A DNA stretch of 64,000 nucleotides from Candidatus Azotimanducaceae bacterium (GTDB lineage: Bacteria > Pseudomonadota > Gammaproteobacteria > Pseudomonadales > Azotimanducaceae), in the NCBI GenBank assembly GCA_051278195.1, contig JBNMQM010000022.1, forward strand, positions 864-64,863. Reading direction: 5' to 3'. The translations under genes were made by a program, and so were the position numbers. Positions 27,709 through 32,454 of the stretch are shown here, one piece after another; within the stretch, counting starts at the first letter, position 1; every line of letters starts with the position of its first letter. A model generated the notes under the pieces. It worked only from the letters and a program-made list of their open reading frames with translations, ran no database searches and was not told the DNA's origin.

Positions 27709-28160
27709 CCTGATCGAAATTCCATTGCGAAGAAGGCGAATACCAAACTATCTTTCAACATCCTAGTCTGCCAGTCGTCATTCGTCCAAACAAAGAAAAC
27801 AGTTCGTTTAAAATGACAGAGTAAATACAGCTAACAATCAATTGCTTGATTTGCTTATCCGTTAGGACATGCTGGGTTCGACGGTCACGACCCTACCTGA
27901 ATGATCGCATCGGACCAATCGACTACCCATCAATCACAATATTGAACAACTTAAAAATCAAGCTAGAGGTTTCCTCAAAGCCCTTAGAGTCGCTGATGAA
28001 GCGCGCAGGGAGGTCTTGGCTTTGCTTGATAGGATTACGGGTAAAACGCCACCAGTCGCCCTTGCTACCAGAGTGACATCGCAGGAAGTGCAGCCGGCTT
28101 TGGGTACATTGGGAGAATGGGTATCTAGGTTCAAGCTACTGGAAGGAGTTCGAGGCATTC

Positions 28161-28535
28161 TTGCTGGTGAGATGTATGGACTCCGAATCACGCAAGCACC
28201 TTGGAGGCGTGTTGTTCCATAGCGATCAGGGTAGCCATTACACGAGTGTGAAGTTCCGCAAACAGGTCTGGCGGTATCGCATTACACAAAGTATGAGCCG
28301 ACGGGGAAATTGTTGGGACAACTCACCGATGGAACGCTTCTTTAGGCGTTTGAAAACGGAATGGGTGCCGGAGATGGGATACGGATCTCTTGTTGACGCA
28401 CAGCGGTCAATTGTTGATTACATAACGGGATACTACAGTCAGACAAGACCCCATCAACACAATGGTGGCTTGCCGCCAAACAAAGCGGAGGAGATGTATT
28501 GGAACTCCTCTAAATCAGAGGCCGAGACCACTTGA
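28161..28535 (+). mobile_element. IS3-family transposase (OrfB) C-terminal fragment
   Basis: [12 protein letters not shown]...[25 protein letters not shown]...[16 protein letters not shown] is the rve/DDE core and tail. The N-terminal two thirds and OrfA are absent. Confidence 0.8.
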
Positions 28536-28774
28536 CCACTACACCATATGCCTTCACCTACGAGTTAGTAGCAGAGGAATATCACTCAGGAGTCTTGGGC
28601 AAACACAGGGAAACCCCCGACTCGCCATCAACAAAGCCCACGCGTGGTTGCCATAATAAATTCATGCACCATTCTGCTATCAATACCTATGGAGATCCTC
28701 CGGTGTCCATGTAACTTTATTGTCATCGCCTACGTGACTTCGATCTTCTCCATCATAGTTCTCGATTATGGTTT

Positions 28775-30184
28775 TCAATCGTTATCAGAAGCGTTTTGAT
28801 CATCTATTTCATCAAACTTAGCGGCCATCGTGGGGTTGCGTCGAGTTAGCTTCTTGATCGTGACATCCTGTGACTTGTCGTTTGCCAAGCGAAGGTTTCG
28901 ATCTGTACTCAGCAAGGCGTCCTTTGTTTTCTGCAGGTGGTCGATTGACTTATCAATCTCGTCGATTGCGGTTTGGAATTTCTTGGAGGCAAGGTCATAG
29001 TTCTTAGCGAATGCACTCTTAAATTTATCGAGGTCGTTTTCGAAATTTGTGATGTCGACGCTCTGTGCTTTAACTAACGCGAGCTCCTTCTTGTATTCAA
29101 GTGACTTCATGGATGCATTGCGCAGCAAGGTAATAATTGGCAGAAAGAACTGTGGCCGAACGACGTACATCTTTGGATAGCGGTGAAATACGTCGACGAT
29201 ACCAGAGTTGTAAAGTTCACTATCGGGTTCGAGTAGGGACACCAGCACTGCATACTCGCAGCCTTTCTCTGTCCGATCCTTATCCAACTCCTTAAGAAAG
29301 TCTTCGTTCTTTTTCTTTGTTGCAGTGGTGTCATTTTCGTTCTTCATCTCAAACATGATCGAAACAATCTCAGTGCCTGTTTCGTCCAAGTCGCGAAAAA
29401 TGTAGTCACCCTTGCTGCCGGTACTCGCGTCATTATCTTTCTCGAAATAGGCGCGCGGAAATGCTGTTGCTCGGATGCGGTTGAACTCGGTGTCGCAGTG
29501 CTGTTCAAGCGTTTCACCCACCATCTTGGTCGATAGACGTGCCTTCATGTCCCGGAGTCGTTCGATCGCATCGTCGCGATCTTTGAGCTGAGTTTCGTAC
29601 TTATCCTTGAGTGACGTCTCGGCGAGTTGCTTTTCAAGTGCTGCTTGCTTGAGGCCGTGCTGTAATTCATCACGTTCTTTCTCGATCACACTCACTGCGC
29701 CTGTGATCGCGACCTTCTGTTCAAGTTGGGTGTTGTCGAGTTTGCTTTTTAAAGACTGGATTTCTTTATCTTTGCTGGCAGCAGTTTCCTGTAGTTCCTT
29801 GGCAAGTTTTGATTCGGCAAGTTCGGCAGCGGCTTGTTTGTCGCGCTTGGTCTGTTCAAGCTCGCTGGCCAGGGTATCACGCTCTTTTTCAACCTTGCTT
29901 AGCACCTCGGCCACCGCCAGTTTTCTCTCGACTTGATCGGCAGCCAATCTAGCTTGTAGGGATTGAATCTCGGTATCTTTGGCTGCCGCGGCCTTTTGCA
30001 TTTCGCTTCCAACTTCGCTTTTGGCGAGTGCGACTGCAGTCAGTTTTTCCTTTTCGGCCAGTTCAAGCCGGTCGTGCAACTGTTGGTCAAACTCGGAGTC
30101 GCGGACCTGCTTTAGAATGTCTGCATAGCCGGTTTCGTCGATTTTGAATGCCTTATTGCAGTGCGGGCAGGTGATTTCATGCAT
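28775..30184 (-). CDS. DUF2130-family protein (Zn-ribbon, long coiled coil, PD-(D/E)xK-like C-domain)
   Basis: [29 protein letters not shown] at the N-terminus, then about 220 aa of heptad-rich sequence. The C-domain reads GDYIFRD...[12 protein letters not shown]...CEYAVLVS. Start set at M32 of the tracked ORF. Confidence 0.75.
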
Positions 30185-30421
30185 GTATTGTTCTCTACCT
30201 TTTTGACGAAGATTCGCGTTTGTTAGTTTCGAGACGCGCCGACGGCTTTCAGCGACCTGTGCCATGTATTCGAACACGCTCGATTAGCTTCTCCAAACGT
30301 TTCGGAGTCTTTCTGACAAATTTGCACAACTTTTGCTCAGCTTTCGCTCAACTTTCGGCCAACGAAGAAATAGAGTTAGGCTTGTGCGTCAAACCTCAGG
30401 TCGTGGTTAGAATCTATTGGG

Positions 30422-31726
30422 TCATTTGAGAATATCTGTGCGGTGCGACGTTTTTATCTGTTCTGCCATATCATCCGGTACGCCGGCTTTTTCAGAGTAA
30501 GATAGCCATTTTGAAATAGCTTCTTGAACTTGTTTAACTATTTCATCTGCTCGGCCACGTTTCATTGAGGCGTTCTTCGCGCACGCTCGAAAATCTTCTA
30601 TTGAAAAATTATCACGCTTGCCATTGAGAGACATTTGATGGCTCGCGGTCCAATCTCCACTTGGATTAAAACTATAGGTCATGTCATAGGCAGGTGAGAG
30701 GTCCCATCTGCCAGACTGATCCATCAGAAAGGCGATGTTCTTCACATGGTCATCCTGGTTGCGGCCAATGATGTTAAACGCCATACGGCGGAATTGTTCC
30801 TCAATCCGGTCCATTGGCATACCAAGCGCTCTGATCGTGCGCAAAGCTTGTTCATAGGAATGAGCGCCAGCCTGCTTGAAATCAAAATGCTCCATTGCGC
30901 ATAGTGACTGCATATGGATTTTCTGGCCTGAGTCTGATCGGTCAAACCGCTTGGTCATGAAATGACTTCGGCCATTCTCTTTAAGTAAACGACACTCTTT
31001 CATTTCAATGTCCGCCGCTAACGCCATTTCGTAGTAGGCATATTCAATGAGGCCATAGCCTGCTGGGTCGGCAAGCTCTTTGTCTTTGTTGCCTGAAACA
31101 CCGTCAAATTTTAACAACCAGTAGGAGAAGCCTTGCCCTGTTCTAACATGACCGGAACGCACTTCATCGGTTTTTGGGTTCCATGCAATAATTGCCTTTG
31201 CTCTGGCGCCGCCTGCTGATGTGCCAACTTGGAGGATATCGGTCAAAGCGTCTTCTCGATCTAAAGGCGCAAATGAACCTTGGAGCGCGTTCCGTTTGGT
31301 CAGGATTTGACTGGCGAGTTCAACCAGCGCTTCAACATTAATCGGTTTCGATTTGACGCTGGTTGGACCTTGGGTCGGCGCGTATTCAAGCGCCCCCATG
31401 CCTCTGCTGCCTGTGTAGCAAAGACGTTCAACAGGATTGAAACTGCGACGATCACGGCCTTCCTTTGCCAGCCATGCATTAATGAGGGCGTTGCCAAAAT
31501 CATCCGGTAAAGAATCTGCAAGAAGCCCGGGCAGGCCGTGAAACGTTTCTCGCGGTAACGCTGAAAAATTATATATGCGGGTGGCTAGCGGCATCATCAC
31601 CGGTGATACCTCTATGCCACTGCCGACAAAGGCCGGTTCGTACTCGAAATTTGCTAGTTGAGCGTTGTCATCCCAGTTGACGGCGCCGATGGCTTTGCCC
31701 CAAAGTTTTATCTCGGCAATCGTCAT
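30422..31726 (-). CDS. hipA: type II toxin-antitoxin system HipA-family Ser/Thr kinase toxin
   Basis: N-terminal HipA coupling domain (LWGKAIGAV..., GLPGLLADSLPDDFG). SAGGARAKA P-loop-like motif and catalytic RNQDDHVKNIAFLMD. 434 aa. Confidence 0.9.
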   Translation of the reverse strand: MTIAEIKLWGKAIGAVNWDDNAQLANFEYEPAFVGSGIEVSPVMMPLATRIYNFSALPRETFHGLPGLLADSLPDDFGNALINAWLAKEGRDRRSFNPVERLCYTGSRGMGALEYAPTQGPTSVKSKPINVEALVELASQILTKRNALQGSFAPLDREDALTDILQVGTSAGGARAKAIIAWNPKTDEVRSGHVRTGQGFSYWLLKFDGVSGNKDKELADPAGYGLIEYAYYEMALAADIEMKECRLLKENGRSHFMTKRFDRSDSGQKIHMQSLCAMEHFDFKQAGAHSYEQALRTIRALGMPMDRIEEQFRRMAFNIIGRNQDDHVKNIAFLMDQSGRWDLSPAYDMTYSFNPSGDWTASHQMSLNGKRDNFSIEDFRACAKNASMKRGRADEIVKQVQEAISKWLSYSEKAGVPDDMAEQIKTSHRTDILK

Positions 31727-32127
31727 TCTTGATCACGCTTGTCTTCATCCCATGACCATGGCATTTTTGTCTCTGTCTTGGCTGATGGTGAAGAGGCCCG
31801 CCGTCGTTTTCTGCCCTGCATTTTGGCCTGTTGGATCGGGCTGATCGCAGGTTCGGGAATAAGAACTTCCAGATTTTCAAGTAATTGAAGCGCGCGTAAT
31901 ACGCGGATTAAATTTGACGCCTGGGTAGAGCCGCCATGTTCAATTCGATGGATAGTTCTTTTAGAAACGCCGGCTTCCGTGGCCAAAGCATCCTGAGTCC
32001 AGTTTCTGTTCAGGCGATACTGGGCAATGCGACGACCCAGCTCTCTAAGTGTCGTGTCATCAGAGTTGCCTTCATTGAATTTCATAAGGTGCCATTTATG
32101 ACGGTTAATTAAGTTGTCGTGCTTCAA
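31723..32127 (-). CDS. hipB: XRE-family HTH antitoxin (HipB-like)
   Basis: LGRRIAQYRLNRNWTQDALATEAGVSKRTIHRIEHG is an HTH_3 motif. The stop overlaps the hipA start (ATGA). Basic, Trp-containing C-terminal tail. An alternative start is ATG 32085. Confidence 0.8.
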   Translation of the reverse strand: MKHDNLINRHKWHLMKFNEGNSDDTTLRELGRRIAQYRLNRNWTQDALATEAGVSKRTIHRIEHGGSTQASNLIRVLRALQLLENLEVLIPEPAISPIQQAKMQGRKRRRASSPSAKTETKMPWSWDEDKRDQE

Positions 32128-32159
32128 AATGACACAATTTGCACTTTATGACAATAAAG

Positions 32160-32182
32160 TATTTGGCACTAATTGCCAAATA
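32160..32182. promoter_or_regulatory. perfect 9-bp inverted repeat upstream of hipB (candidate operator)
   Basis: TATTTGGCA-ctaat-TGCCAAATA, read directly from the sequence. It lies 33 bp (or 75 bp) upstream of the hipB start, followed by a further TGGCA half-site. Confidence 0.4.
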
Positions 32183-32454
32183 TGGCATTTAAGTGCGGTT
32201 AAGAATCGTAAGACGTCAAATATGACGCTTTATAACGAGTCCGCGTAGTAAAAGTCGCTCCTGCACATAAAGCTTCACAGAAACGGGAACAAAGCCCTCG
32301 GCTATGCAGGTGTGTAAGGGGACGAAAATCATTGAACGTCCCCGTTGCGGGCATGGGATATAGTCGTCAAGAATCCAGGTCGCTCTGAGTTGATGCCATT
32401 TCTTCGTGTATGGTGACTGGAACGAAATTAAATAATGAAAAGGAGGGCTCCATC

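Follow-up and report, generated by a model that had tools for sequence, protein, structure and literature searches.

A small accessory patch on the chromosome of a marine gammaproteobacterium (Candidatus Azotimanducaceae) carries a hipBA toxin-antitoxin pair, a gene of the uncharacterised protein family DUF2130 and a dead remnant of an IS3-family insertion sequence (IS), all within the 64-kb stretch of DNA that was analysed here and is called the window below. These are probably three independent items that happen to reside together, since cargo of this kind collects in the same variable spots. The original prediction had instead joined hipB, hipA and DUF2130 into one functional module, and the comparative sequence evidence does not support such a three-gene unit. 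The locus serves as a correction, in that adjacency in IS-scarred DNA is no evidence of a functional module. What the window itself holds is a hipBA pair of known type beside an uncharacterised family that had already been catalogued. The more interesting observations concern DUF2130 at large, namely its apparent operon with OLD-type nucleases, its extreme conservation and its variable coiled coil.

Linkage of DUF2130 and hipBA in other genomes

Two sets of loci bear on the proposed module. The DUF2130 set comprised 80 genome loci with orthologues that are 66-86% identical and up to 10 kb on each side, or about 1.1 Mb of flanking DNA, and the HipA set comprised 80 metagenome loci with orthologues that are 62-77% identical. 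HipA-family genes lay within 10 kb on either side in three of the 80 DUF2130 loci and were adjacent in two of them, L063 (HipA 67% identical) and L024 (HipA 28% identical); an iterated hidden Markov model search revealed no further HipA genes in these 80 loci. The order in both adjacent cases is DUF2130, hipB, hipA, which is reversed relative to the window. Viewed from the other gene, DUF2130 was found downstream of hipA in none of the 45 HipA loci that have at least 1.5 kb of sequence there. One HipA locus in 80 (L126) has a DUF2130 homologue, and this gene is 25% identical, located upstream on the opposite strand in divergent orientation, and placed beside a TrwC relaxase gene. Adjacency thus amounts to 2/80 and 1/80, the partner being absent from its side in 78 of 80 DUF2130 loci and 79 of 80 HipA loci, and the order or orientation differs among all four juxtapositions, the window included. 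DUF2130 and hipBA rarely co-occur in these loci, and this is essentially the outcome named in advance as speaking against a joint module.

The closest relatives of each gene also do without the other. Downstream of the nearest relatives of hipBA are found ArdA, glutamate synthase or IS genes, and never DUF2130. A related genome, L001, is 82-91% (about 86%) identical to the window in nucleotide sequence and carries a DUF2130 gene whose product is 93% identical, with no hipBA. This copy lies on the other side of a TauD-P450-Rieske-amidohydrolase gene cluster, and its similarity to the window copy covers the open reading frame (ORF) plus 32 bp upstream of the ATG. An alignment with a close relative had been suggested as a way of deciding whether the patch is an insertion or deletion. 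It showed that hipBA and DUF2130 are indeed both missing from this position in L001, but the presence of DUF2130 elsewhere in that genome, without hipBA, goes against the joint module.

Several observations weigh on the other side. The number of adjacent cases exceeds what random gene placement would give, with three HipA genes in about 1.1 Mb of DUF2130 flanks against an expected density of about 0.2-0.6 HipA genes per Mb, and a weak but real affinity between DUF2130 and hipBA may therefore exist. We tentatively attribute the excess to shared residence in plasmids, integrative elements and variable islands. Furthermore, every contig from the same population that reaches upstream of DUF2130 shows hipA there, so the local linkage is stable. 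If hipB, hipA and DUF2130 were one stress or anti-phage module, HipA might for example activate DUF2130, or DUF2130 might sense infection. Such a module could draw on this stable linkage, on the shared strand of the three genes and the 237-bp gap between hipA and DUF2130, on the three further independent juxtapositions (L063, L024 and L126), and on HipAD/DS-6, a system in which a HipA-family kinase has another partner and which has been validated in phage defence (PMC13092281). Against it stand the discordant arrangements and missing partners described above, as well as a conserved leader that belongs to DUF2130 alone, a stem-loop after hipA, a recurrent DUF2130 partner that is an OLD nuclease and no kinase, and the lack of any matching system in PADLOC. 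The module is very unlikely. The PADLOC check had been proposed along with the module, and it recognised no defence system among the islet proteins of the window: with PADLOC-DB v2, HipA gave one weak match (PDC-M03A, 7e-4), HipB gave generic helix-turn-helix (HTH) matches only, and DUF2130 matched no family.

As a separate observation on L001, the DUF2130 gene there has a gene for a caspase-like Peptidase_C14 protein just upstream of it, and a 75-bp sequence that matches window positions 48160-48234 is repeated on either side of this second gene (L001 6950-7046 and 9687-9761). The Peptidase_C14 gene has the appearance of an insertion with direct repeats at its ends.

The hipBA toxin-antitoxin pair

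The gene identities that had been read from the letters alone (HTH protein, HipA, DUF2130 and a truncated IS3 OrfB) were all borne out by the ORFs and by Pfam and NCBIfam matches, with coordinates in Table 1. HipB matches HTH_3 (2.1e-10) and HTH_31 (4.7e-10) in Pfam and the couple_hipB/Y4mF subfamily in NCBIfam (8.5e-11, under the family cut-off). Its ORF extends over 31723-32127 to a TTG codon, and the gene callers on identical contigs choose the ATG at 32085. HipA contains Couple_hipA (PF13657, 3.7e-18) and HipA_C (PF07804, 8e-52), both of which exceed the gathering scores, and an NCBIfam scan of the same protein gave a sub-threshold YjjJ match only. The stop of hipB and the start of hipA are joined by an ATGA overlap, as had been noticed at the outset. 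A Gly-rich loop (GTSAGGARAK) can be read directly in the HipA sequence, and an alignment with the Legionella HipT kinase (PDB 8ezr, E 4e-10, phmmer) matches the catalytic motifs NQDDHVKN and SPAYD to its catalytic region. When HipA was compared with the PDB by phmmer, the chains reached were all Legionella HipT-like (E about 1e-10), with none of E. coli HipA at E<=1e-3; the protein is therefore a member of the HipA superfamily from outside the E. coli clade.

The natural standards for comparison are HipB/HipA of E. coli K-12 and the HipA-homologous kinase families surveyed in PMC8262856. The window pair resembles E. coli hipBA in that an XRE-HTH antitoxin gene lies upstream and is ATGA-coupled to the gene for a kinase that has about 435 aa and both the Couple_hipA and the HipA_C domain, in the D-x-H-x-K-N and Y-D motifs of that kinase, and in a palindrome over the putative promoter. 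It differs in the distance of its HipA from the E. coli protein and in its HipB, which has 120 aa and a basic C-terminal tail. The 23-nt palindrome, TATTTGGCAATTAGTGCCAAATA at 32182-32160, overlaps a sigma-70-like -35/-10 pair (TTGGCA, 17 nt, TATTGT) upstream of hipB. By analogy with E. coli hipBA this is a putative HipB operator, and it lies in the expected place; promoter-like sites of the region were no commoner than in shuffled sequence in a consensus scan.

Wherever one of the 80 HipA loci includes the sequence directly before hipA, a HipB homologue is encoded there, and thus hipBA is a self-contained two-gene unit. The nearest copies, 87-88% identical, are found in varied settings: some belong to elements that also encode a serine recombinase, a tyrosine integrase, ArdA and TraG, others adjoin IS3-type transposase genes, and one is in an unrelated chromosomal context (L175). 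From its domains, motifs and coupled HTH antitoxin, the window pair is probably a functional, canonical type II toxin-antitoxin cassette of a mobile type, in agreement with the early description of an intact hipBA pair. HipB would neutralise HipA and, by way of the palindrome that overlaps the -35 box, would also repress the hipBA operon. Upon loss of HipB, the HipA kinase would be predicted, by homology, to phosphorylate an essential translation factor and so stop growth; by analogy with the characterised HipA/HipT kinases, the target could be an aminoacyl-tRNA synthetase. The pair may in this way act as an addiction or abortive-growth cassette.

A role of such kinases in immunity has a precedent in HipAD/DS-6, a HipA-family kinase whose catalytic activity is needed for phage defence (PMC13092281). 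The likeness is that of a HipA-like kinase, so kinases of this kind can act in immunity. The partner is unlike, since that of HipAD/DS-6 has DUF3037 and DUF1829 domains in place of HipB, whereas the partner in the window is a classical HipB-type HTH protein.

One of the hipBA relatives deserves separate mention. In L092 (8150-9650; HipA 88% identical), hipBA lies just downstream of an IS3 OrfA with a truncated OrfB, a C-terminal remnant of an integrase and a 3'-end fragment of a tRNA gene (...GGTCGTGAGTTCAAGTCTCTCTGCCCCTGCCA). The arrangement looks like the edge of an integrated element.

The DUF2130 protein

The Pfam match of the window protein to PF09903 covers profile positions 3-254 of 255. 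Gene callers start the gene earlier and so give 496 aa in place of the 469 aa of Table 1. The protein is laid out as an N-terminal CPHC (C-P-x-C) beta-hairpin, a coiled coil of about 200 aa, a core of the PD-(D/E)XK type and a long C-terminal helix, with the secondary structure taken from low-confidence AlphaFold2 models. The PD-(D/E)XK signature consists of D260 and E279-M-K281. D260 and the hairpin residues C6, P7 and C9 never vary among 46 diverse representatives that are 41-53% identical to the window protein, and conservation of E279 and K281 in this set is at least 90%. Among 79 closer orthologues, D260, E279 and K281 are all invariant. The family is listed in a survey of PD-(D/E)XK enzymes with function unknown (PMC3424549), and a literature search found no functional study of it. 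The reading of DUF2130 as an uncharacterised protein with a nuclease-like motif is supported by these matches.

The coiled coil (residues ~60-200) is built from 69-aa repeats, and the copy number of this repeat varies among close homologues (P0001, P0003-P0005, P0026, P0066 and P0107), whose lengths are 469, 538, 571, 602-609 and 802 aa. The coiled coil therefore changes its length in fixed steps. No tandem repeat was found at the DNA level in this region; the repeats show only in the protein.

Structure prediction gave less. Two AlphaFold2 runs with alignments of 20 and 22 sequences reached a mean predicted local distance difference test (pLDDT) score of 56 and 60, with 37-49 in the core. When the better of the two models was compared with the PDB by Foldseek, nothing matched at E<=1e-3; the top non-significant matches were EcoO109I, EndoMS, BstEII and MUS81, all restriction-endonuclease-like/PD-(D/E)XK enzymes. 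PDB searches with the DUF2130 sequence and with a profile gave coiled-coil noise only.

DUF2130 would be transcribed independently of hipBA. It is solitary here, lacking the OLD ATPase-nuclease that precedes it in about one in eight loci elsewhere. Three features suggest the separate transcription. First, a leader at 30198-30251 matches the DNA that precedes the DUF2130 gene of L007 (Brumicola pallidula) over 54 nt, at 79.6% identity. Second, a weak terminator-like stem-loop follows hipA at 30396-30378. Third, the similarity to L001 begins shortly before the ATG.

Conservation, distribution and company of DUF2130

The 79 orthologues (among loci L002-L081) come from Gamma-, Beta- and Alphaproteobacteria, Verrucomicrobia, Actinomycetota and a spirochaete, spanning at least five phyla, and yet they keep 64-86% identity (median 75%), and 102 residues are invariant. 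The GC content of their third codon positions (GC3) ranges from 0.35 to 0.94 and tracks that of the flanking DNA (r = 0.86). GC3 is thus adapted to each host, and the copies are therefore not recent transfers. These comparisons argue that purifying selection on the protein is strong. Of 1.84 billion representatives of clusters at 50% identity, only 797 match DUF2130 at E<=1e-30. It was found in none of 50,697 phage records and on 75 plasmids, 31 of them conjugative. It occurs patchily and at no conserved place in the genome.

An OLD-type ATPase-nuclease, with AAA_15 and an OLD-like TOPRIM domain, is encoded immediately upstream of DUF2130 on the same strand, often abutting it, in about 10 of the 80 loci (~12%), from Burkholderia to Microbacterium (Table 1). 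This is the sole recurrent family among the 147 proteins that immediately flank DUF2130, and the best PADLOC match of the OLD partner is to the 'Old' model (5.7e-57). The two genes apparently form a two-gene operon at these loci, as judged from their layout. An OLD-DUF2130 pair on an Enterobacter asburiae plasmid lies within a cluster of WYL, helicase, DUF4391, methyltransferase and DEAD-helicase genes. No OLD gene is present in the window (tblastn with four of the partner ATPases), where the gene upstream of DUF2130 is hipA. The described OLD classes are the solitary class 1, Gabija (class 2), the retron-associated class 3 and PARIS (class 4) (PMC10568477), and the OLD-DUF2130 pairing falls outside all four. 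At the loci that have it, DUF2130 would be a second component beside OLD, like GajB or AriB.

Other neighbours are also suggestive. On pNP40, a phage-resistance plasmid of Lactococcus lactis (L179 7001-10871), a DUF2130 gene whose product is 51% identical to the window copy is followed by a gene for a TrlF-family AAA-like ATPase, and the pair adjoins two cytosine methyltransferase genes and is near an Abi gene. Rhea, Aristaios and Kamadhenu, three more recently published systems of pNP40, were considered as identities for this pair and were rejected, as their domains (TnsE-like, ADP-ribosyltransferase-like and YfbU-like) do not fit. The pNP40 homologue, when used as a protein query, led to near-identical lactococcal sequences only and added little diversity. 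Further DUF2130 neighbours are HsdR, a KAP NTPase, NERD-UvrD with an SMC-like ATPase, an Hhe-like helicase and a BrxL-type (BREX) ATPase. The majority of immediate neighbours are ordinary genes. The suggestion that the patch carries defence cargo has accordingly survived in part: DUF2130 does keep company with defence genes elsewhere (OLD, restriction-modification, BrxL and pNP40), while the proposed link among the three genes is not supported.

DUF2130 is most likely a nuclease that acts on DNA, in defence against mobile elements or in competition between them, to judge from its motifs and neighbours. A more specific proposal, which we put forward tentatively, is that it is a conserved coiled-coil PD-(D/E)XK immunity nuclease against phages and plasmids that works either alone, as it would here, or as the second component of an OLD system, the latter making a fifth OLD context class. 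The copy beside hipBA would then be a defence gene that works on its own, and the patch would amount to a miniature defence islet in which two independent systems lie together.

Two points weigh against a defence nuclease. The fold models are of low confidence, with a nuclease core below pLDDT 50, and a median identity of 75% across phyla is unusual for a defence gene and would fit repair or recombination on conserved host machinery. DUF2130 may, on this second point, be an accessory nuclease of DNA repair or recombination that resolves unusual DNA structures, RmuC-like and held under strong purifying selection by conserved host DNA machinery; we consider this possible, if somewhat doubtful. 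The conservation and host-adapted GC3 described above are in its favour, as is the observation that at the same two loci the OLD partners are 31% identical where the DUF2130 proteins are 72% identical, so that OLD diverges far faster. A LigD gene adjoins DUF2130 on a Bradyrhizobium plasmid, and the mostly ordinary nature of the immediate neighbours fits as well. The coiled coil and PD-(D/E)XK layout add to this, since by its predicted secondary structure it may resemble that of RmuC, in which a long coiled coil precedes a restriction-endonuclease-like core that bears D...E-x-K. Unlike RmuC, DUF2130 has the N-terminal CPxC hairpin and the long C-terminal helix, and the Pfam scan gave no RmuC match at E<=0.01. 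Both RmuC (PF02646) and DUF2130 appear in the PD-(D/E)XK survey (PMC3424549). The patchy distribution, unconserved position, plasmid carriage, operons with OLD nucleases and presence in restriction-modification-type clusters and on pNP40 all speak against a repair function. The neighbours of DUF2130 make a role in defence plausible, though unproven, and its very slow evolution is just as much an argument for repair or recombination.

DUF2130 makes a useful lead, being patchy, plasmid-borne, not found in phages, 64-86% identical from Gammaproteobacteria to Actinomycetota, and associated with OLD operons. If it proves to be a nuclease of defence or DNA surveillance, the OLD family would gain a further class of partner, and a widespread DUF would be explained.

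The IS3 remnant and the population breakpoint

The OrfB remnant matches transpos_IS3 of NCBIfam (1.4e-35) at model positions 265-368 of 369, its C-terminal third, and in Pfam rve_3 (1.1e-13) and also rve and rve_2. No OrfA was found at this site; with the C-terminal third of OrfB alone recognisable, it is a remnant and not a functional IS. Position 28543 ends ...CCACTACA, 8 bp after the OrfB stop, and fits an IS3 terminus.

This same position is a breakpoint within the natural population. Contig L088 (also L183) is 99.9% identical to the window from 38151 down to 28544 and then diverges, and at 9609-10386 of L088 a Lipoprotein_16 gene, absent from the 64-kb window, takes the place of the IS3 remnant and the SGNH hydrolase gene. 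This points to two population haplotypes that differ by an IS3-associated rearrangement at 28543/28544. The breakpoint coincides with the IS3 end, and therefore the IS scar is a later rearrangement at the flank of the patch and not the vehicle of the three genes. The IS3 end would mark the event that joined the patch to the SGNH-hydrolase and transporter genes. The remnant and the breakpoint together uphold the earlier view of a strain-variable accessory patch with an IS scar.

Next to the remnant, a further ORF (27905-28222) had been called an unrelated fragment. The ORF exists, and it has no Pfam, NCBIfam or plasmid (tblastn) match, but its unrelatedness is uncertain: positions 27962-28054 have a weak collinear tblastn match to the DDE region of the L092 IS3 OrfB (12/31 identical, 38.7%, E 0.007 in a 1.1-kb database). 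This segment may be a further frameshifted piece of the same decayed IS3 OrfB.

Layout, flanks and composition of the patch

The features of the patch are collected in Table 1, along with the loci at which OLD and DUF2130 genes are neighbours. The hipA-DUF2130 spacer had been noticed earlier, with a length one base pair too long (238 bp).

Table 1. Features of the hipBA-DUF2130 patch in the window, and OLD-DUF2130 neighbours at other loci
Feature	Location	Strand	Remarks
hipB-type antitoxin gene (XRE/HTH_3)	31723-32085	minus	120 aa from ATG at 32085
hipA-family Ser/Thr kinase toxin gene	30422-31726	minus	434 aa, apparently intact
hipA-DUF2130 spacer	30185-30421	minus	237 bp
DUF2130 gene	28775-30184	minus	469 aa; PF09903 3.2e-91
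Spacer from DUF2130 stop to IS3 end	28544-28774	none	Common to both population haplotypes
IS3-family OrfB remnant, 5'-truncated	28161-28543 (ORF 28161-28535)	plus	Putative right IS end 28543
Non-coding or decayed DNA from SGNH hydrolase gene to IS3 remnant	27709-28160	none
Likely hipBA promoter and operator	32151-32182	minus	Consensus scan and sequence reading
OLD directly upstream of DUF2130	L011, L014, L018, L020, L031, L047, L070, L072, L081		Ends ~9700-9998 in full-length loci
OLD beside DUF2130	L077		Opposite strand
OLD-DUF2130 pair	L180 5118-8410		Enterobacter asburiae plasmid

The patch is flanked on one side by a GDSL/SGNH hydrolase gene and an MFS_2 (GPH-type) transporter gene and on the other by a weakly SnoaL-like gene and an Amidohydro_3 gene, as found in the Pfam scan. 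The flanks as first described are thereby confirmed for the hydrolase, the transporter and the amidohydrolase, while the gene described as NTF2-like has only a sub-threshold SnoaL_2 match (E 8e-4).

Low spot GC had been offered as a sign of a distinct islet. The counts given (24, 26 and 28 of 60) are exact but carry no signal: about 10% of the 60-nt lines of the window are at or below 24/60 and about 22% at or below 26/60, and the islet as a whole, with 47.9% GC against 49.6% for the window, is at the 14th percentile of windows of the same size. The individual genes of the islet have 48-50% GC, equal to the host background. With the islet only at this percentile, a foreign origin on the grounds of GC was rejected.

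The patch might alternatively be the remains of a single integrated element, integrative and conjugative or mobilisable, that brought in hipBA and DUF2130 as unrelated cargo and has since lost its integrase and attachment sites. The elements that carry close hipBA relatives, or place them by a tRNA 3' fragment and an integrase remnant, favour this idea, as do the grouping of a DUF2130 homologue, hipBA and a TrwC relaxase in L126, the 31 conjugative plasmids with DUF2130, and the fact that hipBA and DUF2130 are both missing from this position in L001. It is nonetheless unlikely. Neither an integrase nor a relaxase was found in or around the islet, and no tRNA gene, Rfam RNA or flanking repeat, whether direct or inverted, marks its boundaries. 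Composition equals that of the host throughout, and the lone DUF2130 gene of L001 has a divergence comparable to that of its surroundings (84.6% nucleotide identity, against 82-91% for the flanks), which is more in line with a long stay of the gene in the lineage than with its arrival together with hipBA.

The HipA protein is 100% identical to P0121, from a protein cluster labelled Candidatus Azotimanducaceae MAG (metagenome-assembled genome). Ten metagenome contigs from several JGI samples are about 99.9% identical to the window, with the layout hipB-hipA-DUF2130-IS3 remnant-SGNH. Three of these ten (L086, L087 and L091) stop 13-456 bp past hipA, within or just after the hipA-DUF2130 spacer; these contig ends may come from strain heterogeneity or low coverage at the junction. 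Far from the patch, at 63429-63620 on the plus strand of the window, lies a second decayed piece of an IS3-type OrfB, from the DDE region (VWAGDVTYLRTAGGWMYLAKL...), followed by frameshifted remnants.

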